Notes under the pieces: model-generated
What the model was told of the DNA's origin: nothing
The model's database searches: none
The model's input: only the letters and a program-made list of their open reading frames with translations
Translations under genes and position numbers: made by a program
Source: Chiloscyllium plagiosum
Lineage: Eukaryota
Direction: 5' to 3'
DNA length: 64,000 nucleotides
NCBI RefSeq assembly: GCF_004010195.1
Contig: NC_057733.1
Location: 22,460,163 to 22,524,162, forward strand
Shown: positions 451 to 34,163 of the stretch, piece after piece
Layout of the letters: the number at the start of each line of letters is the position of its first letter
Position numbering within the stretch: the first letter of the stretch is position 1

Positions 451-498
451 TAAGGAAAACAGCAGAGATCATGGAGCATGCACTGCTTAACGATGAGA
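451..498 (+). CDS. LLGL2: LLGL2 (lethal giant larvae 2) C-terminal internal exon, xRKTAEIMEHALLNDE
   Basis: tttctttcag acceptor and gtaagt donor, phase 1-1. The peptide resembles the recalled human LLGL2 segment VMERALLSDE. Confidence 0.8.
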
Positions 499-666
499 GT
501 AAGTACAGTCACTTTTAGATTTTTTCCAGATTGTGTTTATATGAGTGCTTCTGGCCCACTTTGGAGGTTCTGGTGGGGATGTAAGAGCATACCCCACTAT
601 TGGAGTTCGTGATTATTTTGATTTTGTTTTAACTATACAGTTTTTTTTTGTTTGTTTACTTTTTAG

Positions 667-724
667 GAGTTTTATTGGAGATTCAGAGCACGCTCGAGTC
701 TGACTCAGCTCTAACTGACAGATT
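667..724 (+). CDS. LLGL2: LLGL2 exon, RVLLEIQSTLESDSALTDR
   Basis: T-rich tract plus ttttag acceptor and gtaggt donor, phase 1-2. Matches the recalled human LLGL2 segment RVLKEIQSTLEGD. Confidence 0.8.
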
Positions 725-4185: not shown

Positions 4186-5046
4186 CCCTATCCCTTCCTC
4201 TACTTGTCATTGGCATCAGTGTGCACAAGGACCTCCATCTGCTCACTCTTTCCCTTTTTAAGAATTTGCTGCAGCTGCTGTGAGACACATATGACTCTGG
4301 CACCAGAGATGCAACACACCATCTGGATGTCGTCATAACCAAAAGATCTGTGGATACTGTAAATCAGAAACAAAATCAAACTTCTTGATGTTATGCCTAT
4401 CTGTGCCCCTGACCAAAGTCCCCAATCACAATCAATTGCTTGGACCTTGACTATCCCTCTGAAGAGCAAAATCAATGACAGAGCCAAAGATCTGGCCTCT
4501 TACACTGACACATCTGCGGTGTGACCACCTCCCTGAACCTCTTATCTGTCATACTTCCTTGTTCCTTTAAACTCCTCCATGCCTCCAAGTGATCCATGTG
4601 GTCTGATACTGTCTGTGGCACCTCTGCAGTCATAGTCGTCTGGGACAGTCAATTGCTCCCTGATCTCCTTAACTGCAAATCAGACATTTTTAAAGAAGTA
4701 TCTCATCACTGTTTTACAGATGGATTTTATTTTTCAAACAAGTCCCCATGCAAATGTAATCAGGAAGCTTTTTTTTTTGTCCCAGACCAGATCTGCTATC
4801 CATCCACCCCAAAGTTGTTTCCTTTCTCCACTTCCCAGGGCCTTCAATCTCTGCTCAAGATCTCCGGAAAGGAGGAACCTCACCTGAGGATTCCTGCCAG
4901 AAGGAGTGGCAAAGATCAGCAATTGCCAACCTCCACTCCTTTATTGTTTCAGTCAGTTCAGATGGATGCAATTGCTGTGTCTTTTATGATGAACTGAATT
5001 ATGAAGCAGTTTTGATTGTGAATGTTTTTTTTTTCTTTGTGAACAG

Positions 5047-5051
5047 ATTGA
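5047..5051 (+). CDS. LLGL2: LLGL2 terminal coding bases (D + TGA) at the start of the last exon, followed by an AU-rich 3'UTR
   Basis: Long T tract plus gaacag acceptor. G|AT TGA closes the frame, and the non-repetitive AT-rich sequence to about 5780 has ATTAAA and ATTTA motifs. Confidence 0.55.
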
Positions 5052-6475
5052 CAGTGATGCTGATGGGAGAACTCTGCTTTGTGCCATAACACTACATGTC
5101 CTACTGTTGGAGGAGGGGTCCCATTAGGAGAAGACTGCTCCATGAGACAGATGGCAACTTGGGAAGATGCCAGATCATTTAGTGCCTAATTCACTATTGT
5201 CCTGCTTCAACCCTTCCATGGAATATTTTTCTCATTTCTTTTCTGTCTCTTTGCACAGTCACTGAATGTGATGGATTTTAATTAAATAACTGCCTGGGTG
5301 CAAATAGTTTTAATAGGGGAGCTTTATACCACTATCTGGTTTTTATATGGTTTTAGATATTTCTGAGGGAGTTCTCATACATTAAGTGGAAATGAAAATG
5401 TAGAAATAATTTTTAAATTACAGAACATTTAGTGATATTTAATATATATGTATAATTTAGTTCCTGGTGGCTGCTGTAATTGTTTTACCTAGTCTAGTAT
5501 ACATTGAGGAAATATTTTCATACTTTTGAATGGTTTTAGTCTGTAAAGGTGCTCCTCCTGGAGTCTATTTTTGTAGCCAATCATGTCAGTAGGAACCTAA
5601 TGAAATGCCACTGCAAACACTACTCTACTGAATGATAAATTAAACCATTTTCACATGAACTTTTAAATTTGTATTTATTTATGCCATATCTAAGTTGTAC
5701 TAGCTTCTATCATCATTTTCTGGATTGTTTATTTTGACACCTGAAGATTTAATTTGAGGTCTCTGCAATATTGTAATTAGATTTCATTGTCAGGGCAGGA
5801 CTTGTACACCCATATTAGGACTACTCTCCCTCTCTTCCTCTTTTAGCTTCCCCCTCCCTCCACTCCCCCATCCCTTATGAGTGTGATGGATACTCCTCAC
5901 TTGCCTGGATGAGTGAAGCCCTGAAGAAACTTAACACCATCTAAGCCATCTTGATTGACACCACATCCACTCCCTCAACCACCGATACTCAGAAATAGCA
6001 CAGCGTACCAGCCACTGCAGTAATTCACCAAGGCTACTTAGCAGCATCTTCCAAACCCAAGATTATTTCATCTCTAAAGATCGGAACATCAACAACCAAC
6101 TAATTTGCTCTACAAGCCACTTGCCATCCCAACTTGGATATATATCATAATTTCATTGTCACTGGGTCAAAATCTGAACACTCCCTAATTATGTTGTGTA
6201 TCTACTTATAGTACATGGACTGCAGTGGTTCAAGAAGGCAGCTCACCATCACCTTTTAAGGTCAACTAGGGAAAGGCAATATATGCCGACCCAGCTGTTG
6301 ATGCCTGCAACATTATCAGTGAATTTTTTAAAGTATTATGTCTTTGTTCTCAAGATACACAGAATGCATCCCAAGAAAAATTAAAAGACAAAAGAAACTG
6401 AAGAACCTAACCTCAATCATCTGAAGAAAATGTATAGAGGGAAAACTAATGGGACTACAAGCTGACAAGCTTCCC

Positions 6476-6598
6476 CTGTGAAGGGCTTATGTTTGAAACA
6501 TCGACTCTCTTGCTCCTCTGATGCTGCCTGACCAGCTGTACTTTTTCAGCATCACACTCTTTGATTCTGATCTCCATCTGCAGTCCTTACATTCTCCA
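6476..6598 (+). mobile_element. Degenerate Penelope-derived terminal fragment with a decayed hammerhead core
   Basis: ctg-tgaagggcttatgtttgaaacatc followed by gatgctgcctgacc...atctgcagtcct, the same family as 23645-23861. Confidence 0.65.
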
Positions 6599-6699
6599 AG
6601 CCCTGCCCCAACGCACCCGGAATTGATGGCTATATCAGCGAAGATTAAGTCACTGCAGAAATGCAGATTTATTAAATAGGAACTTAGAAAATTTCCTGC

Positions 6700-8110
6700 A
6701 GTCTGAAAAGGCCTCAGGAAGTTGGTGGTATTTGCAATATAATATTTGTTTGAAGAAATGGGCAGGGTGGGGAGACTGAACAGAAATGGATGGATTAGGC
6801 TAGCTGCACTGTTGAGAAAATGTATATTGTTATTAAGGCAGTAATTTGATTTTTAGAAATTGTGTGATAGAGGGAAATGTCTGACAAATGTCAAGTTTTC
6901 TTAGGATGTTTGGTTGAAGGAAAGTAATAGATATAATTGATTTGGGTTTTCAAAATACTTTCAATAAGTTGTCATGTGTTAAGTGATATTTGCATGAAGA
7001 TATCATCGACTAATGAACTGAAGATATCGAGTCAGGATAAGTGGGTCATTTTCAACTTGGCAAACTAGAATTAGTAGAGTGCCACAAGGATTAGTGTTCA
7101 GATCTTAATAGGAACAGATGTAGATATTTATAATCTATATCAATGACTTCGATGAAGGGGCTGACTACATTACGATGGAATTTGCTGAAAATAGAAAGGT
7201 AGGAAATCAAGTTTGAGGAGAATACAGTCAGCAAAGGGATCTTGATTGTGAATGGGTAAACAAATTGGCAGTGAATAACATGAGAAAATGTGGAATTGTC
7301 TCCTTTGACATCCTATAGATGGAGTGATGGTAATGTCATTGGACTAGTAATCACAAGGGACTGGTTAATTCTCTGGGGGTTTGGGTTCAAATCTTTCTAA
7401 GGGAGCTGGTGTAATTAAAATTTGATGTTCAATTTAATAGCATGTATACTTAGTGACAATGCAGGGTAGGATATTAACACATTCAGAGGGATCTTGGGGT
7501 GCTTGCCCACAAATTCCTGAAGGTGGCAGGGTATATTAAGGCATATTAGAAACTTGCCCTTTATCAGCCAAGATTATAACAGCAGGGACATTGGCCACAG
7601 CTGGAATGATGTGTGCCATTCCAGTCATTGCAATATCAAAGGATGTGTTTGCATTGGCAAGAGAGGATTTACCAAGATGTTTCCAGGAATGGAGTCTTTA
7701 GCTATGAACAGAGGCTGGATAAGTTCAGGTTGTTTTCTTTGGAGCAGAGAAGGTTGAGAGGGGGCCTGATCGAAGTGTATAAGATTGAAGGGGAAGGAGA
7801 GGGTGGATAGAGAACAGATGTTCTCCTTAGTCAAGGGTCAATAATAAGGAGGCACACTTAAGGTGGCAGGCAGGAAGATTAAAGGAATGTTGAGGAAAAA
7901 CTCTTCTTCCAGAGGATGGGGTGGTGGTGTTGGGCTTCTGAGGGGGTATTTGAGGCTAATAATGTCAATTTTTAAAAAGTACTTGGATTAACACTGCCAT
8001 AATATTTGAAGGTATGGGTCTAGTACTGGAAGTGGGACAAATGGAGATTTACTGTAGTTTTGGTGGGACAGACTTGATAGATCAAGGGCCTCTTCTGTAC
8101 TATGATTAAT
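6700..8110 (+). mobile_element. Degraded CR1-type LINE RT and 3' end
   Basis: Remnants GVPQG, IYINDFD and LFSLEQRRLRGGLIEVYKI. Confidence 0.7.
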
Positions 8111-9154
8111 GTGATTCCTGTGCAGCAATCATGTAATGTTGGGAAGTAGTGTAGGTTGGTTAGCTCAGTTGGCTGGGCATTTGGTATGCAATGTATAGTG
8201 ACGTTAATGATTTGAATTTGTTTCGCCAACTCCAGCTCCACAGCTCTCACCCAAACACACTCCCTCCTCAATCCCCAAGCATCTCTTCAGCTTCAACGAA
8301 AGCTCTTAAGACTGTTGCATACATTTCGTAATTGTGGAAATACTGCATTACTGTTAAGTATATGCCTGGAATTTGAAGGCATGCATAGGAGTGAATGTGC
8401 CTGTCTGTATGTGAAGTGATCGAATAAACGTAGTCAACTAGCAATCTAATTGGTGATTTATGTTTAATGGGTTTGCTGTGTAGGCAGGAAAATGGCGTTA
8501 CAAACAAACTATACAATTGCAAGTTGTAAACGGCAAACTTTGGCATAGATCGCTTCTGAGAAAGGTTCCACAAATCTTAAACTTTAACTCTGTTCTCTCC
8601 CCGCAGATATTGTCCGATATGCTGAGTTTTCCCAGCAATTTCTGCTTTCCAGCATCCGCAGTTCTTTGGCTCTTTTTGGCACAGATTTGAGGTCCTGCTT
8701 CTGTGCTGCATGATGGAGAAAGCATTGCAGTCTAAAAGACCAAAATAAATATTTGTAAGTTTACCTTAAGATCTAGAGGCTGCAATCGCATTCGAGTAAG
8801 GTGAGGGATGAGGAGAGGCAACTGAGGTTGGTATAGAGAAATCTGAGACCAGAGTGATTGGGGTCTGGGCGTGGTCTAGAGTGGAAGAGACAGTGAGCCG
8901 TCGTACTTTGAATACTATAACTGCATGCTGGGCTGCAAATACTTCAAAAAAAACAGAGAAATATTGAGTGTTCAATACCTCACATTCAAAAGACAGAATA
9001 AGTATCGGTTAAAATTAATCCGAAAGATGGAAATATTCCAACGAGATAAGCAGTAAAAGCAGCGAATCAGCAGATGAGATTTAAATTGATTTGCAGCCAG
9101 CATTTCCCATTAGAGACTGAACTTTGGAGTTGCGTTTGATATTGAGTATTCATA

Positions 9155-9217
9155 ATGGAGAGACGAATCTTTGCAATCTCCCTCTTCCTTGTGGCTTTTT
9201 TTGCCCCTGGAATCTTG
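9155..9217 (+). CDS. Avidin-like protein exon 1 (signal peptide MERRIFAISLFLVAFFAPGIL)
   Basis: ataATGG start, charged N-terminus and hydrophobic core, phase-0 gtgagt donor in frame with exon 2. Confidence 0.85.
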
Positions 9218-9773
9218 GTGAGTCGTTAAATCTAAGATCAGGATTGGGGTGTGGGGATAGATTCGAAAATGATTGCTTTGTTACTTGATGGTTAAACACT
9301 TCATGGGCTAACAGTGCGTAGTTAGCACCATGATCCGTGTTTGACCCAATGAGTATTGCCTTTGGCCTTTACTGTCTCCCTTGATGCTGTCTTCTGTCAT
9401 TATTTAGCCATTGTTAATGTTTACCTTTGTTCCCTCCGTTGGTGTTTAATTACTGCCGCTGTTTTAATCTCTGGGGTTTTTACTTAACCAATAGCGACGA
9501 CGTTTTTTATACACCCTGAGGATATTTTCCCCCATCGCTGTTTACCCTCTATTCACACCCGGCAGCGTTTACACACGGTTGCAGTTTACCCCGTGAATAA
9601 CTAATCCCTGTGGGTGTTTCCTGCTATCGTTGTTTATCCGAAGTAACCGTTTGTCCTTTGTTTATTTGCTCTTGCACGTTTATTTGCTCCCTGTCAGTGT
9701 TTACCCCTTCTGGTTACCCGCCCCTTTGGTACTTGCTGTCTGCGCCCAATTTTCCCCTTGTTTTCTTTCGCAG

Positions 9774-9987
9774 GCGGGGGTCTGTAACATGACTGGACTT
9801 TGGCAGAACGACCTGGGCTCCGTCTTAAACCTGAATGAGATTGAGAATTATAAATTGAAAGGAAAGTTCTTGACTGCAGTCGAGGCTGCCAAGGGTGAAG
9901 CTGGATCCGACCGACGAGCCCGAGTGATTGGTATCAAGAACAATGGGAAAGAGCCAACATTCAGCATGTCTGTAGCGTGGGCTGGAG
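9774..9987 (+). CDS. Avidin-like protein exon 2 (AGVCNMTGLWQNDLGS...EPTFSMSVAWAG)
   Basis: Avidin signatures C-x2-TG-x-W-x-NDLGS, TAV and PTF-x3-V-x-W. Pyrimidine tract/cag acceptor and gtaac donor, phase 0-1. Confidence 0.95.
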
Positions 9988-10254
9988 GTAACACCCAGGA
10001 ACAGATACAGAAACACCAGCATGTGAAATAATGTTTAGAAATGAATTACCTCTAAGTTAATTAGCTCAATTATTGGTCACTCAATTTAGTGTCAGTGTAA
10101 ATACATCGTTATTAAATAATGGGAATTAACTCCTTACTAAAGCACCAATCATTATTAACTCTTAACACTGAATAACCACAGCGTTAAAGCGCCCAATATT
10201 TATTATCCCTATATCGAGGAACAACTAATGTTAATGAATACCCAATAATTAAAT

Positions 10255-10470
10255 AAAAACCAGAAGAACTGCAGAGGCTGTAAATCAGAAACAAAAACAA
10301 GTTGCTGGAAAAGCTCAGGGTAGCATCTGTGCAGAGAAATTGGGGTTAACGTTTCCGGTCCCGTGACCTTTCCTCAGTCTGAGGAAGTGTCAGTGGACCC
10401 GAAAGGTTGAGTTTGATTTCTCTGCACACATGCTGCGCCTGCTGAGCTTTTCCAGCAACTTGTGTTTTTG
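10255..10470. mobile_element. Fold-back Penelope-derived element with head-to-head degenerate hammerhead cores
   Basis: Inverted arms and a 16-bp TSD tacccaataattaaat (10239-10254/10471-10486). Cores at 10348-10377 (-) and 10379-10408 (+). Confidence 0.8.
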
Positions 10471-10799
10471 TACCCAATAATTAAATCCCACAAATTAATA
10501 GTATTAATTAATTCTTAACTTCAAGTTAAACACACCTCTATATATTTATTAGCTGTTCAACTGCAATGCCATTTAAAAGTTACAAGAGAAATTAAAGGTA
10601 ACAACAGCCATCTTTCATGGTGTGATCAAATACTGAGTGGACTTCTATGCTACTGTTCAAATTCACTACCCTTATTATCCTCTTTCAGGGAATGTTGTAC
10701 CTCTTATTATTTTCCCCTCCCTGCTTCAGTATAGTTTAGCAAATATCTGAGTGAGAATACTTAATGAGAGTGATCACCATACCATAGGGTTTGGATTGA

Positions 10800-11600
10800 A
10801 AATTGAGAAGAACCAGGAAAAAAAACATTGTAAAAGTTCTTTATTGGAGCAGGAGTAATTTTGTTGCAGTGAGAAGGGATTTAGCCAGGATAAAATAGAA
10901 TCATAAGATTGATTGTGGGGGGCAAACCGTACTAGCATAATAGATGATCTTTAAGTAGGAGATGTTTCAGGTACAGGTGAGATGCATTCCAACCAAAGGG
11001 AAGACAAGGGGAACCGAAGCCAAAGCTGCTTCATTTAATAGTGTTAGTGTCAACATGGATTTTTTAAAAATGGCTTCATAACAAAGTGTTAAAGTGCTAT
11101 TTTTCAAACTGGAGGGTGGTTAACAGTGGTGTTCCCTTAGTGTCAAAGCCAAGACCACTATTTTTGTTCACATTATTTAAGTTACTTGGATATTGAATCA
11201 CAGTAAAATTTCAATTTGCCAATGATCCCAAACTTGGAGGTGCAGCAAATACTGTTACAATCAATTGCAACAGGACATAGACTAGCAGAATAGGCAGACA
11301 AACAGCAGATGGAATTAAGCACAGAAGTATGAGAATGCATTTTGGCAAAAGGATAGGAAAAAAATATATAAGTCAAGGCATAATAAGTATACAGGAACAA
11401 AGGGACTGAGGTTAATGTGCATAAATCACTGAAGCTGACAGGATAAATTAATAAAGTCGTTAGCAAAGCACATGGAATCTTCATAAGGTAGAGGCATTAA
11501 GCACAAAAGTCTGGAAGTTATGCATAACCTTTTACAAAGTTCACTTCTCGTTAGGAAAGATGCAAGGATCTTTGAGGGTGTAGAGAAGGGATTTCCTAGA
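10800..11600 (+). mobile_element. Degraded CR1-type LINE fragment
   Basis: RT remnants (SGVP, FAND-x-KLGG) in avidin intron 2. Confidence 0.6.
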
Positions 11601-11950
11601 ATTTGTTTTCTTCATTCTTTTTATGGGATGTGGGTGTCACTGGCAAGTCTAGAATTGCCCTCTAACTGACTATCTTCTGAAGCCATTGCAGAGGGCAGTT
11701 AAGAGTCAACTACATGATAGATAATTGCTCTGAAGTCACATGTAGGCCAGATTAGGTAAGGATGGTAGACTTACTTTTAGAAAGACATAAGTGAATCAGA
11801 TTGTTGTAAAAACCTATGACAATTGTCATGTTCTTCATCATTAAGACCAGCATACATTCCAGATTTTAGTGAATTTAAATTCCATCAACTGCTTTGGTAG
11901 GACGTGATCCATGTTTGCAGCACATTTAACCAGGGCTACTGGATTATTAG

Positions 11951-12113
11951 AGTGGTGCTGGAAAAGCACAGCAGGTCAGGCAGCATCCGAGAAGCAGGAA
12001 AATTGACATTTCGGGCAAAACGTCAATTTTCCTGCTTCTCGGATGCTGCCTGACCTGCTGTGCTTTTCCAGCACCACTCTAATCTAGACTCTGGTTTCCT
12101 TGGTTTTTACTCG
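11951..12113. mobile_element. Fold-back Penelope-derived element, ribozyme core deleted
   Basis: 62-bp perfect inverted repeat (11946-12007/12022-12083) and a 12-bp TSD ctggattattag (11939-11950/12114-12125). Confidence 0.85.
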
Positions 12114-13201
12114 CTGGATTATTAGGCCAGTGGCATTACCAGAATGATTCCAGTGATGAGGAAATGTAGCTACAAAGCTAGGTTGGAGAATTTGGACATG
12201 TGCTTTTCAGGGCAGAGGAGTTTGTGTGTGAAGGTTTGGTGAAAGTATACAAGTTTATATTAGTTGAATCGAAGTTGCTAACGGTACAATGACCGAGAGA
12301 CACAGATTTAAGGTTTTGCACAAAAGTTGCAGGGGAAAACATGAAGAAGAACTTTAACATAGTGAGTGATAATTACCTTGGTATGTATGAAGAGGTGCAA
12401 GTTGATTCAGTCTACAATTTCCATAAGAAATCTGAATAGGTAGTTGAAGGAATTTAAACTTAAAGAACTAAGGGGGTAGAACAAGGGAATAAGACCGACT
12501 GGATTGCTGTCCAAAGAAGTGACATGGGCTGAATGATCTCCTGGGCAATATTGAGTTAGTAATTCTTTATACAGAATAATTAAACAATTATTATCAACCA
12601 CTATATGATTTAGTTATACATGTTATGTCTCCCTCTATCCTGACATCTCTTCGGGAACATGTAATAATATTTGTGACTGATTAAACATCCCTTAAAATTT
12701 ACATCTCCAGTTGTCCATCACAAAACAAAAATTCCTCTTAATCACCTGGAAAGTTATTCACTGCCTTTTCTGTTCATTCAAAATGATATTTTTTAAAGTG
12801 TCCACAGAAAGTGGACATTGCAGGCAAGGCCAGCATTCATTGCCCATTCCCTAACTGTGCTGGAGAAAATGGTGGTGAGCTGCTGCCTTGTGCCACCCCA
12901 CCACCCATAGTGCTGTTGGGAAGAGGGTTTTATGGTTTTGACATCAGTGAAGGAACAGTGATATAGCTTCAGGTTAGGAGGGTGTGGTCTCCCACCTTCA
13001 GTCTGTGTCTTTTCTGCTGAGACAGAATCGTGAAAGGAAACACTTTACGTTAAATAGCCATGAAAGTTGTAAGTGAATGAGTCAAAGTGCTGAGTATTTC
13101 AGTGTGGATTTGTGGACCATCTCTGAATCTCATTGAAGAGCTGTATGGGAGGATTGGTGAGATCTCATGACTGTAAAGAGATACTATCTTGTTATTTTCA
13201 G

Positions 13202-13322
13202 GTTCCATTACATCCTGGGTAGGTCAGTGCCTGATGCTGGAAGATGGGCAGCAGATTCTGAGGACTACGTGGCTGTTGAGATCTCCAGCTACCAACCTAC
13301 TGGAGGATTGGAAAACGACACG
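13202..13322 (+). CDS. Avidin-like protein exon 3 (GSITSWVGQCLMLEDGQQILRTTWLLRSPATNLLEDWKTTR)
   Basis: Avidin motifs GQC, L-x-T-x-WLLRS and DWK-x-TR. ttttcag acceptor and gtgagt donor, phase 1-2. Missed by the ORF track. Confidence 0.95.
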
Positions 13323-14627
13323 GTGAGTCATTAAAGAAACGTATTGATGTATTTATGGTGCAGAAGGAGACAATTCACTTATCATATCTACCTTGGCAAA
13401 AAGAAGTGTCATTCAATCTAATCTAATATATTCCAGCTCTTAGTCTGTAGTCTGGTAGGTTATAGTACTTGAGTGTCATGAAGGTTTCTACCTGTACCAA
13501 CCTTTTGAGACAGTGAATTCATAACCCCAAACCACCCCACCCTGGGTGAAAGGATAACCCTCCTACTCCCCTTAATTCTTCCACTAATTACTTTAAGTCT
13601 TTGCCCCAAGGTTATTGAGCTCCTTGCTAATGGAAATAGTTTCTTCCCATTCAGTCTTTCTAGGCCCCATGTTATTTTATCAACCTTGACTAAATCTCCC
13701 CATAGCCGCCTCTGTTTGCAAGAAAGTAACCCCAACCAAAGCCATCTCCTCTCACAGCTAAAATTCTCAATTGCCATCATCATCCCCATATATCATCTTT
13801 TCCCTAGTTCTGTTTTTGCTGCTAATTCTGACCAATCCACTGATATCTATTTACAGTCTACAGCCTTCTTCCACTACCAATCACATGAATGATCAAATTT
13901 TATATCAATTGCAAATTTCTTAATCATGCTTCCTACATCTGAGTCTCTGATTTCTAAATCACAAGCTGCAAGACAACTAGTACTGAGTTCTGGATAAACC
14001 CTTTTAGATATATCTGTCCAGTCACAAACCAGCATTGACTATAAACCTTTTATATTTGCCAAATGAGCTAATTTTGGATTCAACATGTCACTTTCTCCAT
14101 GTGAGTTTATTTTCCTGACTAATCTTCTATGTGAAACAATGGTCAAATGCCATGTAGAATACATTAAAACCCTGTCTTCATCAAGACTTCTTGATATCTC
14201 CTCAAAACAAATTCTCAGATTTTGCTTTCCTTTAACAAATCCATGCTGACTGTTTTAATTAATCTGAATCAGTGGCTTTCTAAATGTCTAACTTAAACTT
14301 GAATTAATTTGAGTTAATTAGTTCAAAGATTAATGAGTCTGAGAAAAGAAAAAAAACTACTCCTTTCTTAGTTAAGTGGAATGCCCATAATTTTGAAGTT
14401 GGTGCCCTCAAGTTCTAATTTTCCCCATTAAAAGCAACTTTCTCTCAGCAGTTATACTATCAAGCCCCCTTAGAACCTTTCATATTTCAATAAGCTTATT
14501 TCTCATTCTTCTAAACTCTAGGAAATATAGGTCCAATCTGCTCCACGTTGCTCCATAAAGCAGTCCCTTCATTCCCAGTAAGCTGCCAAGTGAAGCTTCA
14601 TTGAAAGTAATTCATTGTAAGCATAGT

Positions 14628-14850
14628 TAAAAATCACATGACAACAGATTATAGTCCAACAGCTTTATTTGGTAGCACTAGCTTTTGGAGCACCGCTCCT
14701 TCTTCAGGTGGTTGTGGAGCTTAAGATCTTGCTCACGGAATTTATAGCCAAAGGAGTCTTGTGTCATACAGTCTGGTGTGATACAGTAATCTTAGATTAA
14801 AACTTTGTTTCTTTTTAATGGGATATGTTGGTTTCTGTTCCTTGATATGT
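14628..14850 (-). mobile_element. Penelope-like terminal fragment with a G12-mutated hammerhead core
   Basis: Reverse complement reads cac CTGAAGA A GGAGC ggt GCTCC AAAA GCTA gtg. Same family as 18680-19067. Confidence 0.7.
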
Positions 14851-15354
14851 CAAAGATACCTTCCTCACAACTTTGATTCTTGCGTACTTTTGTATCATCA
14901 GCCAAGTTGTGGCACTTTGTACCATCATTCATATCCCACCTCCCAGACTGATCCCAATTCCACAACAATCTGAAGCTCTCCCACTTTGTGCCATCTCTCC
15001 AGCCACACATTTAGTTCCACTAATGTAATATTTTGCTACTTGTTCTGACCTGTCAAGGTTCAGATCTATGTCAGCACTGATCGAGATCTTGAGGATTTTG
15101 AAAAGAATTGATAAAGTAGATAGAGAAATGGAAGAGTCTAGGAAAAGATGCCATAACTTCAAAATTCAAGTCAAGTGATTAAGGAACAAATTCAGGGAAC
15201 AGTTAAAGGAATTAACTCCAACAAAAAAAGCAGATGCTGGAGATCAATTAATAACTTTAAATCCAAGATGAATAGACTGTTGTTAGACAAGGATATTAAA
15301 AGATATGGAGCCAAGGTAGGTGGATGGATTTAAGATGTAGATTACCCATACTTT

Positions 15355-15660
15355 CCTGCAGCCTTGAAGAGCTGAGTGGCCTTCCCAGTTTCCTGTAGAA
15401 CAGGCTGGCAGAGCTGAATGGCCTCCTCCTGTTCCCATGGAACAGACTTGAGGGATTGAATGGTTTCTTTTGTTTGTGTTTAATAGGCTGAACAAGCTGA
15501 ATGGCTCATTGGTGTCTGTCCATTCCTACGTAACAGATTTGTGGGACTGGAATGCCTCCTCTTGTTCCTGAATAATTGCCACGAAGGGCTGAATGGTCTC
15601 CTGTCCTTGTGTAGCAAGCTGAAGGAGCTGAATAGTATTTTTCTGTTCTTGTGCTGTATG
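15355..15660 (+). repeat. Degenerate ~42-50 bp tandem array of a CR1/SINE 3'-end motif (GCTGAATGGCCTCCTCCTGTTCC)
   Basis: About 7 recurring gctgaatgg-like units. Confidence 0.7.
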
Positions 15661-15707
15661 ACAGTTGGTAAACCTTATGCTCACACTTTTGTTTTTGGCT
15701 CTCTTAG

Positions 15708-15783
15708 AATTGGACAAGATACATTCCACCAAATCAATGGGGATATTCCGCAAGGAATCCATCAAAAATCCGTCAATCTTTAG
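15708..15783 (+). CDS. Avidin-like protein exon 4 (R-IGQDTFHQINGDIPQGIHQKSVNL-stop)
   Basis: ctcttag acceptor in phase 2. IGQDTF aligns with chicken avidin VGINIF, and the total CDS is 474 nt. Confidence 0.88.
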
Positions 15784-15844
15784 TGCAACACATTGCACCA
15801 AGCCTGGATATTTAGTGTAATTGCCATTTCTGAATGGTATTCTC

Positions 15845-15855
15845 AATAAAATAAA
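15845..15855 (+). terminator. Overlapping AATAAA polyadenylation signals of the avidin-like gene
   Basis: AATAAA at 15845 and 15850, about 60 nt after the stop, followed by a GT-rich tract. Confidence 0.75.
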
Positions 15856-16457
15856 GTAAGAACACGTCTTGTTTGTGTACACTGACAGCGGTATAAATCC
15901 TATCTCTCTCAATGTGATTTTGTTTCAGGAGGTTTAAAGTTTAAGTTTAATCCTGTTCTTGTGAAGTTTTTGAAGGCCGGTTCACTAAATGTGGCCCGCT
16001 TCAGACAGCAGTATGTCTTAAGGGAAGAAGTCTGTTGATTAGAGGGAATGTAAGTTATTTTATGAATTAATGATGGAAGCAAATATTTTACTTGTGTACA
16101 GTATAGCAAGAAAGAATGCACTGTTGGGCCTGGTTCTTAGAGATTAGGTGGATCTAGTGGCTCTAGTGTCAGCTGGGCGACATTCAGAAGATGGCAATCA
16201 TTGTACTGTATGATTCATAGTGATGGTTGAGAATGAAATGCAGCAATCCAGAACAAGCAAATTAAATTGGTGGAGGGTGGACTTTAATGGACCAAGAACA
16301 AAACTGGACAGGATTGACTGGAACCTTGGGAAAACAGTAACTGAACAATGGGCTCCTTCAAAGAAGAGTGTTTAGGTACAGTTAAGGTATAGTTCCTCAA
16401 ATGGGAAAGGTAGGACAAACCAATCCAGAGCTCCCTGCATGACAAGAAGATAATTAT

Positions 16458-22944: not shown

Positions 22945-22999
22945 TCAGTTTAAATTCAAGTGTCATTGACTCCTGCCCTGAGTTTTGTTTGCTTCAACC

Positions 23000-23581
23000 A
23001 TGTCTGCTGTTAATGTGCTTCTCTCAGAGGACAGCCTGTTGTGTGCGATATGTTTGGAAATGTTCAAGGATCCTGTAACAATCCCATGTGGTCACAGTTT
23101 CTGTCTGAAATGTATTCAGAGTTACTGGGATCAAGATATGAATGGTGGAGGCCATTGCTGTCCTCAATGTCAAGAGGGATTCACTCCCAGACCTCAGCTT
23201 TTCAGGAGCCATGTCCTATGTAGAGTGGTTGAGGACTTTGCTTCATCCAAGGGGAGTTTTTCTGAAGGCCCTGTTGGCCCAGATGACGTGGTCTGCGATT
23301 TCTGCACCCACACCAAGCTACAGGCAGAACAGTCCTGTCTGGTGTGCCTGGCCTCTTTTTGCAAATTCCACCTGAAGCCTCACCAGGAGAATGAAGTATT
23401 CCAACACCACATCCTGACCCATCCTGTCAAGAAGCTCAGCCAGAGACGGTGCCCAGTCCATGGAAAAGCTCTTGACTTGTTCTGCAGAACAAATCAGACC
23501 TTTATCTGCTCGGTTTGTACAACGAAGGAACACAAGAACCATGAAACAGTCACAGTAGAAGAGGAGGGAGCTGATAGAAAG
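23000..23581 (+). CDS. TRIM E3 ligase (TRIM16/25/47/65, finTRIM-like class) exon 1: RING, B-box1, B-box2
   Basis: C3HC4 RING (CAICLEMFKDPVTIPCGHSFC...CPQC), B-box1 (CDFC...CLVCLASFC..HL.PH) and B-box2 (CPVH...EHKNH). Kozak ACCATG start and gtgagc donor, phase 0. Confidence 0.95.
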
Positions 23582-23644
23582 GTGAGCTCATTACTTGGGG
23601 TTCCTTTTATTTTTAGAGAAAGAAGATGGTCTAAAGTCAAATAA

Positions 23645-23861
23645 GGAGAAAGTGAGGACTTGCAGATGCTGGAGATCAGAGCTGAAAATGTGTTGCTGGA
23701 AAAGCGCAGCAGGTCAGGCAGCATCCAAGGAGCAGGAGAATCGACGTTTCGGGCATAAGCCCTTCTTGATTCCTGAAGAAGGGCTTATGCCCGAAACGTC
23801 GATTCTCCTGTTCCCTGGATGCTGCCTGACCTGCTGCGCTTTTCCAGCAACACATTTTCAG
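23645..23861. mobile_element. Young fold-back Penelope-derived element in TRIM intron 1
   Basis: 88-bp arms (23680-23767/23776-23863) with 2 differences, and a perfect 14-bp TSD ctaaagtcaaataa (23631-23644/23862-23875). Confidence 0.9.
23770..23803 (+). ncRNA. Minimal hammerhead ribozyme motif
   Basis: CUGAAGA A GGGC uuau GCCC GAAAC GUC/ga. Core intact, palindromic ACGU, but only 2 bp of proximal stem I. Confidence 0.7.
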
Positions 23862-24849
23862 CTAAAGTCAAATAAAACTATTGTAATATTAGAGAAGGCC
23901 ATTTAGTTCTTTGTGGCAGTTCCAGTGTTTAATTAGATAATTGTTGATCAGTACCTCTTATCAATTTTTCTTTCCTAATACTACAACAGCTTTTTGCAGA
24001 AACACTCATTTATTTCTACTATCTTTTATATGAAGAAGTACTCAGTGACATCATTCCCAATGGCTTAGCTCTAATTTGAAATTTAGAGCTGGACTTCCCC
24101 ACTGAAGGAAAGCATTTGTTTATATCTATCATCTTAATCCTTGTAATCATTTTTAACAATTTAATTGTATCTCACTTTATTCTTTACAGTCAAGGCAAAC
24201 ATAGTTACTCCATGCAACCTGTCATCATAATTTAACCCTTTTCCCTCTATATCATTCTGTTGAATCGGGGTGCACCATCTGCCTCAGCTATGGTACCAGT
24301 TGTACAGTTACTCCAGATGGAATCAAACCAGAGTTTTGTGCAAAGGTTATTTCAGTTATTTTGTATTCCATTCCATTGCAATAAAATTTAGCATTCAATT
24401 AACCTCCTAAATCATTTTTTGACCACTAGCTTTTGGTCATTTTTGTACTTGGATCCCTAAATCTCTCTGCTCCTCCACCATTCCTAACTCTGTCACCACT
24501 TAGAAACACTCTGATCTTTCTCCTTAGATCCACAGTGGATCACCTCACACTTGCAGTGAATGCCTTCGCCAACATTGTACCCACTCACTGAATTTAACGG
24601 TGTCTGCTACTTTCAGATCTCATCTCCACTATTTACAATGTTGCCCAAATTAGTGTAATCAGTAAATTTGGATATAGGAGTTCTCTATTCCTTCATTTAA
24701 GTAATTTATCAAAACCGTGGATAGCAATTACTAGCCACATTCTGCCATTTGAGTATATACCTTTTATCCTCAATCTCTATCTCCCACCACCCATCAAATT
24801 TGTATGCCAGTATTGCTTCCAATTCCTCTCACTTTTTTTACATATGTGT

Positions 24850-26240
24850 TAGGAGCAGCAGTAGACCCTTGGATCAATTCTTGCCATTTAATAAGCTGGT
24901 CTGATTATAACCTTAACTCCACAGTCCCTAACTCTAACTACCAATAACCTTTCACCTGCTGAGTGTCAAGAGTCTATCCACCTCTGCCTTTAAAAATATT
25001 CAAATAGCTCCACCATATTTTGAGAATGAGTGTTCCAAATATGCCCAATCTTCTGAGGTAAAAGAATTCTCCTCATCCCTGCCTTAAATGGTGACTCCTA
25101 ATGCTCCCACAAGAGGAAATATTCCTTCTACATATACCCTGTCAAGATTCCTCAGGATGTTTTATATTTCACGGAAACGTAGAAAATCGGAGCCGAGGTA
25201 GACCCTTTGGTCCTGCATTATTACTCTCGCATTCAATTTGATCACGACTGATCATCCACCTCACTGCCCTGTTCCTGCTATCTCCCCATATCCTTTGATC
25301 CCTTTAGCCCTAAGAATCATATCTAACTCCTTGAAAATATTCAGTGTTTTGGCCTCAACTGCTTTTTGTAGTGGAGAATTCGACAAGCTCGGCACTCTTT
25401 GGACAAAGAAATTTATCTTCATCTCAGTCCTAAATGACCTACCCTATATCCTTGAACTGTGACCCTCTGGTTCTGGACTCCCAATTCATCGGCATCCTCT
25501 TTCCTGCATTTACCCTGCCTAGTCATGTTAGAATTTTAAAGGTTTCTAAAAGATCCCTTGATTCTTATAAACTCCTGTGAATATAGTCCTAACCATTAAT
25601 TTCTCTCTTGATATGTCCATCATGCCATACCAGGAAGCATCTGGTAAACCTTTGTGGCATTCCCTCCATCACCGAAACATCCATCCTATGATAAGGAGAC
25701 CAAAATTGCACATGGTACTCCAAGTGTGGGTCTCACCATGTCCTTGTACAATTGCAGCAAAACATCCCTATTCCTGTAATCAAATCCTCTTCTATGATGG
25801 GCAGACACCATTTGCCGTCTTCACTACCTGCTGCATCTGCAAGCTTACTTTCAGCAACTGGTTTACAAGGACACCCAGGTCTCATTGCACTTCTACATTT
25901 CCCAATCTATCACAATTCAAATAATAATGTGCCTTCTTGTTTTTGCTACCAAAGTAGATAACCTCATGTTTATTCACGTTATACATCATCTGCCATGCAT
26001 TTGCCCACTCACTCAACTTGTCCAAATGACAATGATGTGTCTCTGCATCTACCTTACAGCTCACCCTCCCATTCGGCTGTGTCATCTGCAAACTTTGAGA
26101 TATCACATTTAATTCTCTCATGTAATACATTAGTATATATTGCAAATAGCTGGTGTCCCAAGCACTGATTCCTATGAAATCCCACTGGTCTCTGGCTGCC
26201 ACTTGGAAAAAGACCTGTTTTCTGTCTACCAACCAGTTTG
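24850..26240 (-). mobile_element. CR1-type LINE RT/3' fragments
   Basis: Minus-strand LDKLSEWANAWQMMYNVNK..VIYFGSKN. Confidence 0.8.
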
Positions 26241-27371
26241 AATCTTCTATAGTGGATACAAGCCTAGTGTGTCCAGTCTTTCCTCAGAAGACAACCAAGT
26301 AAGGACAGCAGTTTCCTTCCCCAGGATTTGGAACCAGGACCCCAGAACATTCTGTTGATAATACCACTATGCTATTGCTTCCCTTTTGGCTTGATATATT
26401 ATGTTTTATTTTTATTTAACAAGATGGTCATCTAAACAAAAACACACAATGATTCAGATTTGTTTTTAACAATTAAACAGAAGTTTAGTTTACAAAATAA
26501 ATGTAAACAAAATAGAATGTCATAATTTGAAAGATCTGAAAACACATAGTAAAAATACAATCCTGTTGAATCCAACTCCACTGTGCAGTACTTGAATATC
26601 AGAGAATTACTTCCTATCACTATCACGTCTATAGGTTTGACTTAACTGTTCCTTTCAATCCCTGGATCTTTTCCTTGATTAGTCACACAACGTAGCTTAT
26701 ATTTTGTCAGCTTAAAGTAACCCCGTCCAGGTTTTAAGCAAAACACTTTTGGTCTGGAGCTTTCAACTAAACTCTTGACACTGAGGCAACCTATATTCTA
26801 ATTTTTCTGTCTGAGCTTCTTTCTTGAGGAGAAACTGTTTCATACATCTAACTTCAAGTAGGACCTCTGAATGGATACTAAAAGCTTTAAAAGTTATGGA
26901 TTTTTCCTCTTAGCAAAACAAATCCTGATTCTTTTAACTGAAAGCAAGCTAATACTCTTAAATGTTTACTCTGTCTGCATGTTAAACTCGAAGTCCAAAC
27001 AAATTCTAATTATCAACCCAGGAACACTCTCTCTGACATACTGATTGAAAAAAACTTCATGACTCCAGAGAGCCTAACAAGTTAATCATTAAATCTCTTC
27101 ATACACGCCAAAACCCGCACATCACTAGTTCAAAATCCAAACTCTAAAATAAATTATATTAAAATAGACATAAATCATACATCTTACATTATATGAGGAG
27201 GCAGTTATTTTGTGGTAATGTCATTGGCCTTGTTAAACTGCCTACAGTATCCAAGGATGTGCAGGCTAAGCAGGTTAGCCATGAGAAATGCAGGGTTACA
27301 GGGATAGAGTAGGATGTTCTTCAGAAGGTCAGTGTAGACCCAATGGGCTGAATGGGCGGCACGGTGGTAGT

Positions 27372-27686
27372 GGGCGGCACGGTGGCACAGTGGTTAGCAC
27401 TGCTGCCTCACAGCGCCAGAGACCCGCGTTCAATTCCCGACTCAGGCGACTGACTGTGTGGAGTTTGCACATTCTCCCCGTGTCTGCATGGGTTTCCTCC
27501 GGGTGCTCCGGTTTCCTCCCACAGTCCAAAGATGTGCAGGTCAGGTGAATCGGCCATGCTAAATTGCCCGTAGTGTTAGGTAAAGGGGTAAATGTATGGG
27601 AATGGGTGGGTTACGCTTCGGCGGGTCGGTGTGGACTTGTTGGGCCGAAGGGCCTGTTTCCACACTGTAAGTAATCTAATCTAATC
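27372..27686 (+). mobile_element. Full-length young HE1-like tRNA-derived V-SINE
   Basis: Pol III A box (tggcacagtgg) and B box (gttcaattccc), V-domain gtgggtttcctccgggtgctccggtttcctcccaca-like, (TCTAA)n tail, CpGs retained. Confidence 0.92.
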
Positions 27687-28262
27687 ACACTCTAGATTCT
27701 ATGATTCCAAGAAAATCCAGCTTTGGTAGATATTTACATTTTAATTCAATTAAAATCTAGAATAAGGAACTGGCCTATTGGTGACATGTAACCACTGTTG
27801 ATTGCCTTAAAAAAATAATCTTGTTCACTATGTTTAGGGAAGGAAATATGCTGCCTGGCCTGCTGTGTTTTTCCAGCACCACACTTTTCAAATCTGCTGT
27901 CCTTACCTGTTCTGGCCTACATGTGACTCCAGAGCCACAGCAATGTGGTTTACTGTTAGCTTCCCACTGGGCAATTATGGATAGGTCATAAATGCTGTCC
28001 TAGCGAGCAATGTCACATCCTGTGAACAAATTAAAAAGAAAACTCTCTTTTTATACTTCTAGCTAGCTTTCTCTCATACTTCAATTTTACTTTCCTTACG
28101 TATCTTTTAGACATTCTTTGCTTGTTTTATGGTTTGTCCAATCTTCTGACCTGCCACCTATTTTTGCACAATTATATGATTTTTCTTTAAATTTGATATT
28201 ATCTTTAACACTTTTTTTAGGAATGCCAGATGCAGAGCTTAGAATGTTTTCTGGAAGTGCAC

Positions 28263-28495
28263 ACTGACTGTGTGGAATTTGCACATTCTCCCCGTGTCTG
28301 CGTGGGTTTCCTCCGGGTGCTCCAGTTTCCTCCCACAGTCCAAAGATGTGCAGGTCAGGTGAATTGGCCATGCTAAATTGCCCGTAGTGTTAGGTAAGGG
28401 GTAAATGTAGGGGTATGGGTGGGTTGCACTTCGGGGCGGTGTGGACTTGTTGGGCCGAAGGGCCTGTTTCCACACTGTAAGTAATCTAATCTAAT
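28263..28495 (+). mobile_element. HE1-like V-SINE, 5'-truncated
   Basis: Near-identical to 27450-27686. Confidence 0.9.
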
Positions 28496-29699
28496 AAATA
28501 TCCATGGATATTCTCAGATATACCATGCCAATGACTTCTGCAAAGAAATCAGTAAATCAATTATACATGATCTATCTTTCACAAATCCATCCCAGCTTGC
28601 TCTGATTTTGTGAAAGTTCTTATTCACTCAGTAACTAGATTCTAACAACTTCGCTAGAACAGATATTACACTAATAGATCGCTAACTCCTAAGTTCATCC
28701 TCACTGGAAGTTTAATATGTAGATATCGAGTGATGTCAATCCAATGATAGGCTATGATTCTGGCCATGAAGCAACTGTCACCAATAATACACTGTCAGGA
28801 ATGCCTCATATATGAAGATTGTCCTCTTGGATGAGAATGCATGATGTCTTGGTGCCTACACCTAACTATCAACTGGTGCCATCAGTAGAGAAGATAATAT
28901 AAGAGGACATTGTGAAGGACAAGAATCTTGTAGAATTGAATATAGAATGATTATAATCTTAATCCTAGTTTGGTATTGTCTGGTTCTCAACCCTTCCACC
29001 AATGATAACTATTTCTCCCCATTTACTCTGTCCCCTCTAATTTTGGACACCTCCATTCATTATCTTCTCAAACTTTGTTTTCTAAAGAGAAAAGACACAG
29101 CTTTCCAATCTATCCTCATAACTGAAATCTCTCACCTGTTGGAATTATTCTTGTACATCTTTTTTGCAATTCCTCCAATTACTTCTTATCCTTAAGGTCT
29201 GGTGCCTAGAACCGGACACAATCCTCCACATGAGGATGAACCAGTTCTGTAAAAGTTCATTATAACGTACTTGCTTTAGTACCCTATGATCCTATTTACA
29301 AAGTTCAGGATTACAATGCCTTATAAGGTCAGTTTTTCACTTTAGTCCGTCACATTTCTTCCTTCAGGGAAGGGAGCTGGCTTCTGGTTGAAAGAATATT
29401 TAAATTTTGTGAGTGGTTGGACTTGAGAATGTTTGAATATTATAGCAGTTAGTGGGACCATACACAGAGACATCAGTGGGACCATCGATGGGAACATTTC
29501 TAGGATGAGCGACAAGGACAACTGAGAGTCAGTTGGATGCCGTGGTGAGGAATTTATGTAATATATTTTGACAGGAGAAAAAAAATTCTCATTGTATCTA
29601 TGTTATGACAGAACAGCAACAAGTTTGTAAGCAGCCTTTGTAAGATGCCTTCTTCCTATATCCCCTCACTACCCAGTAACTTACCATACAATGATGGGT

Positions 29700-31438
29700 C
29701 AGCCATTCTTACCTCTGAGTCACAAAATTCTGTGTTCAAGTACTACTCCAGGACTTGAAACAAAAATCAAGATTGGCATCCAATGCAATATTGAGGAAAT
29801 GCTGCTCAATCAAAAGTGCTGTCTTTCAGATGAGATGAGAAAATTGAAAACATACCTGCCTTGGGTGAATGTAGTTGAGAGTGTGGTGCTAGAAAAGCAC
29901 AGCACGTCAGGCAACATCTGAGGAGCAGGAAAATCAACGTTTCGGACAAAAGCCCTTAATCAGGAATGAGGCTGGGCGCCTCAGGGGTGGAGCAATAAAT
30001 GGGAGGGGGTTGGGGCTGGTGGGAAGGTAGCTGAGAGTGCAATAGGTGGATGGAGTTGGGGTAATGGTGTTGGGTCAGAGGGAGGGTGGAGCAGATAAGT
30101 GGGAAGGAAGATGGACAGGTCATGAGGGCAGTGCTGAGCTGGAACGTTGGAACTGGGATAAGGTGGGGGAAGTGGAAGTGAGGAAACTGGTGAAATCCAC
30201 ACTGATGCCATGGGGTTGGAGGTTCCCGGGGCGGAAAATGAGGCGTTCTTCCTTCAGGCGTCGGGGTGGGTAGGGAGTGGCGATGGAGGAGGCCCAGGAA
30301 CTGCATGTCCTCGGCAGAGTGGGAGGTGGAGTTCAAGTATTTGGCCATAGGGCGGTGAGGTTGGTTGGTGCGGGTGTCCCGTAGATGTTCTCTGAAACAC
30401 TCTGCGAGTAGGCGTCTGTCTCCCCAATGTAGAGGAGACCGCATCGGGAGTAACGGATACAGTAAATGACATGTGGAAGTGCAGGTGAAACTTTGATGGA
30501 TGTGGAATGCTCCTTTGGTGTCTTGGATTGACGTAAGGTGGGAGGTGTGGGTGCAGGTTTTGCAATTTCTGTGGTGGCAGGGAAAGGTGCCAGGAGGGGA
30601 GGGTGGGTTGTTGGGGATGTCGATCTGACGAGGCAGTCGCAGTGGGAACAGTCTTTATGGAAAGCAGATAGGGGTGGGGACCATTTGTAGGTGGCGGAAA
30701 TGGCAGGGGATGATGCGATGTATACGGAGGTTGGTGGGATGGAAGGTAAGGACCGGAGGGTTCTGCCCTTGTTGCATTTGGAGGGGTGGGGTTCAAGGGT
30801 GGAGGTACAGAAGATGGATGAGATGCATTCACCAATTTCCTCATTTCCCCTTCCCTCATCTCTTCCCTGTTCCAACTTCCAGCTCAGCACTGCCCTCATG
30901 CCCTGTTCTACTTGTCCATCTTCCTTCCCACCTATCCGCTCCACCCTCCCCTCCGACCTATCACCATTACCTCAGCTCTATCCACTTATCGCACTATCAG
31001 ATACCTTCCCACATCCCCAGCCCGCTCCCATTTATCTCTTCAACCCCCGAGGCTCCCAGCTCCATTCCTGATAAAGGGCTTTTGCCCGAAACGTCGATTT
31101 TCGTGCTCTTCGGATGCTGCCTGACCTGCTGTGCTTTTCCAGCACCACACTCACGACTCTACTTTCCAGCATCTGCAGTCCTCACTTTCGCCTTGGGTGA
31201 ACGTTGAAGGTTCCATGCTAATACTGTAAATAAGAGCAGGAGAGTTATCCCTGGTATCCTGGTCAATATTTATTTATTCCTCAATCAGATTATTTGGTCA
31301 TGTTGCTGTTTGTGGGAGTTTGCCATATGTAAATTGGCTGCAGCTTTTCCTATATGAAATCCATGCAAAGTAATTTATTGGCTGTAAACTATTTTGAGAT
31401 ATTGGTATTTGTGAGAAGTAAATATAAATGCAAATCTT
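29700..31438 (+). mobile_element. Deu-domain SINE (SacSINE1/AmnSINE1-like) split by the Penelope insertion (29700-29872 and 31190-31438)
   Basis: gagcaggagagttatccctgg...aatatttat...cagattat..gtttgtgggag...aaattggctgc...ataaatgcaa. Confidence 0.7.
29873..31189 (-). mobile_element. Penelope-like retroelement remnant with GIY-YIG endonuclease fragment and inverted terminal repeats
   Basis: Minus-strand HVIYCIRYSRCGLLYIGET. About 320-bp inverted arms (29878-30195/30828-31153) and a 15-bp TSD gccttgggtgaaYgt (29858-29872/31190-31204). Confidence 0.9.
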
Positions 31439-31681
31439 GCATAATAATAGTTCCTATTAGCAATGTTAAAGCTATGTAGCATGCCTGTAGGCATGTGACA
31501 GAGGTAGAAAACATTTGTATAAATGATTTCCATCAAAATATTAATCAGTATTGCAATATGAACTGATTTACGTTTCAAGGCAGATCTTGGAATTGGGTTC
31601 GTGGGATGGGAACAGGATCGAATTCTTTTTTTTTGGTTCTTGTTAAAAAATTCACTATTAACACACCTTTCTACTTTCAAG

Positions 31682-31777
31682 GAAAAGCTTTTCCAAAAAG
31701 GACATGAAGCAGAAGCAAAGATAAAGAAAACTCTAATCGAGATCAGACTTCTGCAGCAAAATGTAGACTCAATCATA
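31682..31777 (+). CDS. TRIM exon 2 (coiled coil, 96 nt)
   Basis: Canonical 96-nt TRIM exon EKLFQ...VDSII, aag acceptor and gtgagt donor, phase 0-0. Confidence 0.9.
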
Positions 31778-31863
31778 GTGAGTATATCCTTGAGATTTGA
31801 AGTACATCTGTTGACTGTGGTACATGCGGTCAGTCACTGGCCCTGTGTTTTACTCTTTGTTAG

Positions 31864-32097
31864 AGCTCTTCACTTAAAGTGGGATGTGAAATTAGAGGCA
31901 CATTCTCTGCAATGACTGAAGCCGTTGAGGAAGCCACTGAACAAGTGACTGGATTAGTCGAGAACACAGTGCAAGCAGCACTGAGCCAGGCTGACAGTAT
32001 CCGGAGTCAACTGGAACAGAAATGTGAGGAACTGAGAGAGGAGGAGCAGCAGCTGAAAACCTTGTCAAAGAGCAGTGATCATGTGATGTTGGTGCAG
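31864..32097 (+). CDS. TRIM exon 3 (coiled coil, 234 nt)
   Basis: SSSLKVGCEIRGTF...DHVMLVQ, typical 231/234-nt TRIM exon after an 86-nt intron, phase 0-0. Confidence 0.9.
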
Positions 32098-32354
32098 GTA
32101 CTAAATATACTGATTCCATTCCTACTCATTTATCCACCCAATAATTACATGTGCTGATTCAGATCTTACAGATTAAACCTGATTGCAGCTTTGTGACAAA
32201 GATCAATGTCTATGCACCCAATACAAGAGATAAAGACTGAGAGATAAACTTATTGCTGGCTCAGACAGTTTATTCCAATTTGCTTAAATCATACAGAGCT
32301 GGGCACGCATATTTTAATCACTGCTCTACACTGTGTCAGCTAACAGCATATTTT

Positions 32355-33740: not shown

Positions 33741-34163
33741 GTAGCAGTAAGAGTCTTTAATAATCTAAAGTGTGTCCGATCAGAAAGAAGGAAAGCCATG
33801 TTTCATCACTAGATCCCATCCAGATGTGTTTGAATTAGAGGCAAGGTGAAGGACAGGGGTATTATGACCTGTCTGAAAATTTTGATGCAATCAATTAAAC
33901 CATATTCCCCCAAAACCCATCCTCCATTGTCTAGTTCTGTTGCCCTCATTTGGTTTCACTCTTACCTGATCAGTTGTAAGTACAGGATAGGTTTTTGAGG
34001 TGGGAGTGTCCCTATCTCTGATCCAGGAGACTCCGGTAACATCTTTGAACAGGATGATTTGAAAAGATATGTAGGTATAGGATTTGCAGCAATGAATTTC
34101 TGACTATGTACCACTAATCTTTGTCGATCCCTCAAGGATTTAACATTAGTCCTCATGTATTTT

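Follow-up and report, generated by a model that had tools for sequence, protein, structure and literature searches.

The window analysed here, a 64,000-nucleotide stretch of the genome of the bamboo shark Chiloscyllium plagiosum (assembly GCF_004010195.1, contig NC_057733.1, positions 22,460,163 to 22,524,162), carries an avidin-family gene whose model is real, spliced and correct as four exons. Judged from its sequence, the encoded protein is zebavidin-type, i.e., the shark orthologue of the zebavidin of zebrafish (Danio rerio), and stands outside the chicken-avidin/xenavidin lineage. At the site of the biotin-binding Tyr33 of those proteins it has a phenylalanine, Phe53. The reading that we favour, with a confidence above even and well short of certainty, is that of a tetramer that binds biotin reversibly and with moderate affinity and would carry or buffer it, probably in the gonad and the egg.

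Identity and lineage of the shark avidin

Neither the gene nor the protein is new, both having already been annotated and catalogued. The spliced product (P0001) agrees letter for letter with RefSeq XP_043570489.1, Chiloscyllium plagiosum 'avidin', and the entry 'C. plagiosum_1' in Tables S1 and S2 of the fish-avidin survey of Saralahti et al. 2026 (PMC13425791) is the identical 157-aa sequence, without a single difference; the survey's tables hold 18 chondrichthyan rows in two clades. Orthologues turned up in sharks, rays, skates and a chimaera, with 16 hits out of 63 candidates. What is added here is the placing of the protein in its lineage and the observation that Tyr33 has been lost repeatedly, for which no earlier description was found. 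A literature search, thin on subscription papers, returned no biochemical or expression study of a shark or other cartilaginous-fish avidin, in keeping with what had been supposed when the gene was first noted, and no paper that describes a naturally occurring Tyr33Phe avidin or zebavidin-type paralogues in amphibians.

The original prediction, made from the letters alone, had read at this locus a secreted avidin of 157 aa in four exons with phases 0, 1 and 2, bearing C25, a second cysteine in GQC and an N-M-T sequon. An exact check of the sequence bore this out: all three introns are GT-AG with these phases, and the open translation of 157 aa has a hydrophobic N-terminus, C25, C102 (in GQC) and the single sequon N26-M-T. 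The comparison with the Avidin profile of Pfam (PF01382) that had been proposed gave 41.4 bits (E 2e-10) for exon 2 alone and 36.5 bits (E 7e-9) for exon 3 alone, both above the cut-off of 24; exons 1 and 4, searched singly against Pfam, gave no match. The features of vertebrate avidins (signal peptide, four exons with three introns, disulfide cysteines) are all present, the signal peptide having been called without SignalP, from hydropathy, a helix at residues 2–16 in the AlphaFold2 (AF2) model and alignment to the leader of chicken pre-avidin (7ZN1). The match with the four-exon layout of chicken avidin that had been pointed out also held, as far as exon number goes.

The lineage was followed in a tree of 76 domains hand-picked from 242 proteins (alignment of 128 columns; no true root), in which close relatives, Carassius avidin on the zebavidin side, stood in for zebavidin and chicken avidin themselves. 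Twenty-three chicken-type rows, comprising birds, turtles, alligator, Xenopus avidin, lungfish, coelacanth and second-clade shark and ray avidins, split from the rest with support 100/99, and the C. plagiosum avidin grouped with teleost, bichir, tuatara, newt and frog proteins (group support 87/60 with invertebrate rows included). The same split was recovered with support 98 from a 30-row vertebrate subset, where a single clade of all shark avidins was rejected (approximately unbiased test, p-AU 0.008). The second-clade avidins that fall with the chicken-type proteins are the Stegostoma and ray members, in a tree without C. plagiosum_2; this second avidin of the same species (XP_043538978.1) shares with the present one a secreted avidin barrel, but the second-clade shark avidins, as far as their catalogued sequences go, keep the Tyr and are without the avidin disulfide pair. 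Since sharks and tetrapods stand on both sides of the split, we infer from the sequences that the avidin duplication predates the divergence of the jawed vertebrates. The text of the fish-avidin survey groups chondrichthyan avidins with those of chicken and Xenopus (PMC13425791).

Comparison of structures points the same way. The AF2 model (predicted local distance difference test, pLDDT, 89.6) has the expected strands of an eight-stranded antiparallel avidin beta-barrel, and the modelled fold is closest to zebavidin, which supplies the top six Foldseek matches (root-mean-square deviation 0.7–1.0, 47–48% identity, template-modelling score, TM, 0.97). By sequence, too, the closest solved single-domain relative is zebavidin (4BJ8, E 3e-36), with only an engineered dual-chain avidin scoring equally. 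The two proteins share the type of L3,4 loop, Trp at 78, Asp at 117 and four exons, the middle ones of 211 and 120 nt in zebavidin and 214 and 121 nt in the shark (PMC3811995). They differ in that Tyr33, Ser39 and Ala43 of zebavidin are Phe, Ala and Glu in the shark, and in the shark's C-terminal tail of 15 residues. Chicken avidin, AVR2/AVR4, BBP-A and xenavidin have in common with the shark protein the Pfam Avidin barrel, the disulfide and the four-exon gene, but they lie across the old split at 32–36% identity (by Foldseek for chicken avidin, AVR2/AVR4 and xenavidin) and keep Tyr33. Chicken avidin differs further in its isoelectric point (pI) of ~10.4 (PMC1082904), against ~8.0 computed for the shark protein, and in its glycan site, N17 (PMC2761383) as against N26. 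The family phylogeny called for in the original prediction thus confirmed an avidin, and trees and fold alike made it zebavidin-type and not chicken-type.

Some unusual members of the family were met among the proteins collected. Those of the annelid Ridgeia (P0026) and the octopod Argonauta (P0029) carry the avidin domain twice in tandem and end in a hydrophobic tail; they may be anchored in the membrane or by glycosylphosphatidylinositol (GPI). An Eleutherodactylus coqui protein (P0231) combines kinase and avidin Pfam domains and may be a mis-joined gene model, and a shark and a skate-like isoform (P0004, P0059) read past exon 2 into unrelated sequence, with the second half of the barrel lost.

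The biotin pocket and Phe53

Eleven residues that bind the biotin ring have been named for zebavidin (PMC3811995). Nine are identical in the shark protein; of the other two, Ser76 is replaced by Thr, the residue of avidin, and Tyr33 by Phe53. N33, S37, T55, D137 and the four tryptophans are retained, and none of 16 chondrichthyan rows departs from the pocket tryptophans or the disulfide. Tyr33 is one of three hydrogen-bond donors to the ureido oxygen of biotin (PMC4888747), and the Asn-Ser-Tyr triad of high-affinity avidins is incomplete in the shark, where N33 and S37 are present and the Tyr is F53. The chicken-type L5,6 loop with its Phe72 is absent, and a short W-A-G-G-S loop is found instead, as in zebavidin. 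These residues suggest that Phe53 probably makes the shark avidin hold biotin less tightly; Y33F in chicken avidin was tolerated 'without severe loss' of affinity (PMC3029397). The original prediction, correct as to family and secretion, had overlooked this change in the pocket, and its overall interpretation is supported only in part.

Phe53 is one of 10 positions in the avidin domain that are peculiar to carpet sharks: Phe occupies the site in all five carpet sharks, and Tyr in all 14 other chondrichthyan orthologues. Elsewhere, Phe recurs in both bichirs, the tuatara, the newt and echinoderm proteins, and the frog group has Leu or Met (17 of 17 rows); Tyr is found in the five remaining rows of the ray-finned fishes, one of them Carassius, and in each of the 23 chicken-type rows. 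At least three changes away from Tyr are needed on the 30-row tree, calculated with the column of this site removed, and all of them lie on the zebavidin side. A wider set of 189 domain rows has 142 Tyr, 27 Phe, 3 Leu, 1 Ile and 16 gaps at this site. At least six Phe rows, from four carpet sharks and two bichirs, could be recovered by means of six Phe strings among the 130 in Table S2 of the survey (PMC13425791). This Tyr is called a highly conserved residue of fish avidins in the survey, tetrapods lay outside the survey's search, and its fish-avidin results and its discussion make no mention of the Phe variant.

A tie between Phe53 and egg-laying was considered and rejected: the whale shark, which is live-bearing, has Phe, and the egg-laying catsharks and skates have Tyr. 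Urea was another candidate cause. It binds weakly in the avidin pocket according to older literature, and no paper on such binding was found in the literature search. The idea would be that urea, abundant in shark fluids, mimics the ureido group and that Phe53 makes for a urea-tolerant avidin; we regard this as very improbable, since the 14 orthologues that keep Tyr all belong to urea-retaining chondrichthyans, and Phe occurs in bichirs, newt and tuatara, none of which osmoregulates with urea. The urea-tolerant scaffold put forward in the original prediction would be a conjecture of the same kind, as the change in the pocket does not go along with urea.

It is also conceivable, if unlikely, that the zebavidin lineage has been drifting towards another ligand (biotin sulfoxide, biocytin or a small hydrophobic molecule) and that Phe53 is part of the shift. 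The repeated loss of Tyr on that side only, with Leu or Met throughout the frogs and Tyr throughout the chicken-type proteins, would fit, and structure titles record avidin crystallised with other ligands. However, the shark keeps N33, S37, T55, D137 and the four tryptophans as a ureido-ring ligand needs, and avidin with Y33F still binds biotin (PMC3029397).

Fold, binding and probable role

We regard the protein as most likely a secreted tetramer with a glycan at N26 and a closed disulfide. The mature chain would have 135 aa, ~14.9 kDa, a pI of ~8, one N-glycan site and the disulfide C25–C102, and would form a homotetramer. A four-copy model scored 0.89, against 0.00 for the best control, with contacts agreeing to at least 94% between runs and pLDDT of at least 83; in the calibration, 21 of 30 solved pairs and none of 23 single chains came up to the mark used (microbial), as did 17 of 29 and none of 30 in eukaryotes. 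Avidin tetramers having been solved already, this score expresses likeness only and may come from structures that the predictor has learnt, and the position of W129, the equivalent of Trp110, at the subunit interface of the model may likewise echo solved homologues.

Each barrel is expected to take up one biotin, its ureido oxygen held by N33 and S37 and its ureido NH groups by T55 and D137, in a pocket that would be closed by T96, W98 and W116 together with W129 from the neighbouring subunit. With Phe53 unable to serve as the third donor to the ureido oxygen, and with no counterpart of avidin's Phe72 in the short L5,6 loop, binding is predicted to be nanomolar or somewhat weaker, and reversible. 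Biotin would then be carried, stored or buffered in extracellular fluids, most likely of the gonad and egg yolk, and would not be locked away from microbes, which is the least sure step of the proposal. The gonad or egg is probably the site of action by analogy, since zebavidin, the zebrafish orthologue, serves as the model: it binds biotin with a dissociation constant of 2–5 nM and an off-rate ~100,000-fold faster than avidin, is highest in the ovary, was isolated from oocytes and occurs also in male gills, according to the accounts available, and it is most abundant in yolk and dispensable in a knockout (PMC13425791).

Several points weigh against such a carrier. The authors of one study warn that binding can hardly be foretold from the residues of the pocket (PMC8033661). 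Zebavidin's core residues Phe95, Met97, Met114 and Glu116 and its free Cys75 are T115, L117, I134, Q136 and I95 in the shark, so that, with zebavidin's tetramer-weakening residues gone, stability and affinity could rise and offset the effect of Phe53. The CpG-rich promoter fits broad and not gonad-specific expression, the ovary or egg as the site is drawn wholly from the zebrafish orthologue, and none of the reads in a ~6% sample of run X20 (raw single-cell reads) matched the locus, which is no test of expression.

The original prediction had suggested that the protein may serve the antimicrobial defence of the egg case, an idea that found no support in the analysis. More broadly stated, it would sequester biotin from microbes in egg case, jelly or mucosal surfaces as chicken egg-white avidin does, and we consider this rather unlikely, although the protein is secreted, its pocket is almost intact, and even nanomolar affinity could deplete free biotin. 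The shark protein lies outside the chicken-avidin lineage, the loss of a hydrogen bond goes in the wrong direction for a trap, and the second, chicken-type shark avidin with its Tyr would be the better candidate. The gene is, moreover, intact in live-bearers, which account for 8 of the 19 chondrichthyan rows. Catshark eggs are low in bacteria, with the factor in the jelly unidentified, but protein reportedly makes up <0.001% of elasmobranch egg jelly (PMC11496042). The presence of zebavidin in male gills would suit a mucosal defence, but its affinity for biotin is in the nanomolar and not the femtomolar range, and survival of Streptococcus agalactiae infection was unchanged in the zebavidin knockout, with one pathogen only (PMC13425791).

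That the protein is a decaying or non-binding relic, kept only for its barrel and its capacity to oligomerise in the manner of fibropellin's avidin domain, is scarcely credible. Zebavidin is dispensable in the laboratory (PMC13425791), but the shark frame is open and spliced, 156 of 157 residues are the same in Hemiscyllium, and the exonic differences in the run contigs, three among the rows listed, are all synonymous. Also present are W90 and W129, the loss of which leaves a fibropellin-like mutant unable to bind (PMC8033661).

Beyond the favoured carrier reading, and as a doubtful conjecture offered tentatively, jawed vertebrates may have two ancient avidin lineages, of which the zebavidin one persists, apparently unremarked, in amphibians and the tuatara next to the well-known chicken/xenavidin one. 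The loss of the ureido Tyr at least three times within the zebavidin lineage may show that the two have come to divide the work, one trapping biotin tightly and the other releasing it as a carrier or binding a different ligand.

Gene structure, transcript and neighbourhood

Features of the avidin gene, in window positions
Feature	Position	Strand	Remarks
5' UTR (untranslated region), part of exon 1	8900..9154	+	X1 contig 8900-9216, 0 differences; continues ~110 nt upstream of 8900
Coding exon 1	9155..9217	+	63 nt; encodes predicted signal peptide M1-L21, likely cleavage after A22; first in-frame ATG
Coding exon 2	9774..9987	+	214 nt; C25, sequon N26, N33, L35, S37, F53, T55, V57, W90, zebavidin-type L3,4 loop
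Phe53 codon TTC	9867..9869	+	by alignment, equivalent of avidin/zebavidin Tyr33, ureido-oxygen hydrogen-bond donor
Coding exon 3	13202..13322	+	121 nt; S94, T96, W98, C102, W116, W129
Coding exon 4	15708..15783	+	76 nt including TAG stop; D137, short low-confidence C-terminal tail
3' UTR	15784..16100	+	X1 contig runs on past 16100
CpG-enriched stretch	8751..10250		observed/expected 0.61-0.79; spans promoter and exons 1-2

Splicing was followed in 4 of 24 listed sequencing runs, compared over 8900–16100. The spliced transcripts that the original prediction called for were found: joints skipping 556, 3214 and 2385 nt (GT..AG) are all three present in contigs of runs X1 and X10, and introns 2 and 3 are removed in contigs of run X6. 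These runs carry no RNA record, their RNA origin being taken from the spliced joints and from an exon depth far above intron depth. In X1 the exons have a depth of 224–418 as against mostly 4–15 on unique intron contigs, and in X10 the joints have 4743–8615 as against 6–107 on intron contigs.

An in-frame stop lies five codons upstream of the start ATG, and short upstream open reading frames start at 8808, 8925, 9027 and 9074. The transcript is longer at both ends than the span 9155–15855 first noted, because the X1 contigs reach ~110 nt before 8900 and past 16100. The polyadenylation signal that had been pointed out, AATAAA at 15845, is present, but the X1 contig with the intron-3 joint reads through it, and ATTAAA at 16261 is a second candidate. 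The fall in X10 depth after 15888 was considered as proof of AATAAA use and rejected, since the drop is accounted for by a short junction contig of high depth in the same bin. Intron 2 holds short elements with terminal inverted repeats at 11946–12083 (66 nt, 98%) and 10293–10467 (26 nt, 96%), whose very high contig depth marks a high-copy family resembling miniature inverted-repeat transposable elements (MITEs), and five degenerate copies of a 29-nt unit lie shortly before exon 4, at 15352–15636.

Downstream on the same strand, a multi-exon TRIM gene at 22982–41719 (+) has RING, B-box, coiled-coil and PRY-SPRY regions by Pfam, which confirms one of the two neighbours originally named. The other, LLGL2, comes down to a likeness seen by eye: two short exons at ~452–720 (+), ending in a stop, may correspond to the LLGL2 C-terminal tail, and scans of the window for short LLGL2 motifs gave no convincing match, as expected if only the 3' end of LLGL2 lies inside. 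An exon at 53129–53250 (+) matches Pfam Aa_trans and is, we assume, TMEM104-like; LLGL2, TRIM and this gene would together form what we take to be a human 17q25-like block. Elsewhere in the window there are near-perfect overlapping tandem duplications of ~101–103 nt at 1–369 (possibly an assembly artefact), reverse-transcriptase fragments resembling a long interspersed nuclear element (LINE) in a TRIM intron at 34432–35610 (-; weak zf-RVT match), and an assembly gap of 500 N at 52099–52598.

A stable, naturally reversible tetrameric avidin may find modest use in affinity purification. If the two lineages do divide the work, bamboo shark and catshark would offer a natural Phe/Tyr test, and a ready-made reversible avidin besides. 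Phe53, together with the repeated loss of Tyr in one of two paralogous lineages, makes the choice between trap and carrier, and with it the purpose of vertebrate avidins, testable with a few natural proteins.

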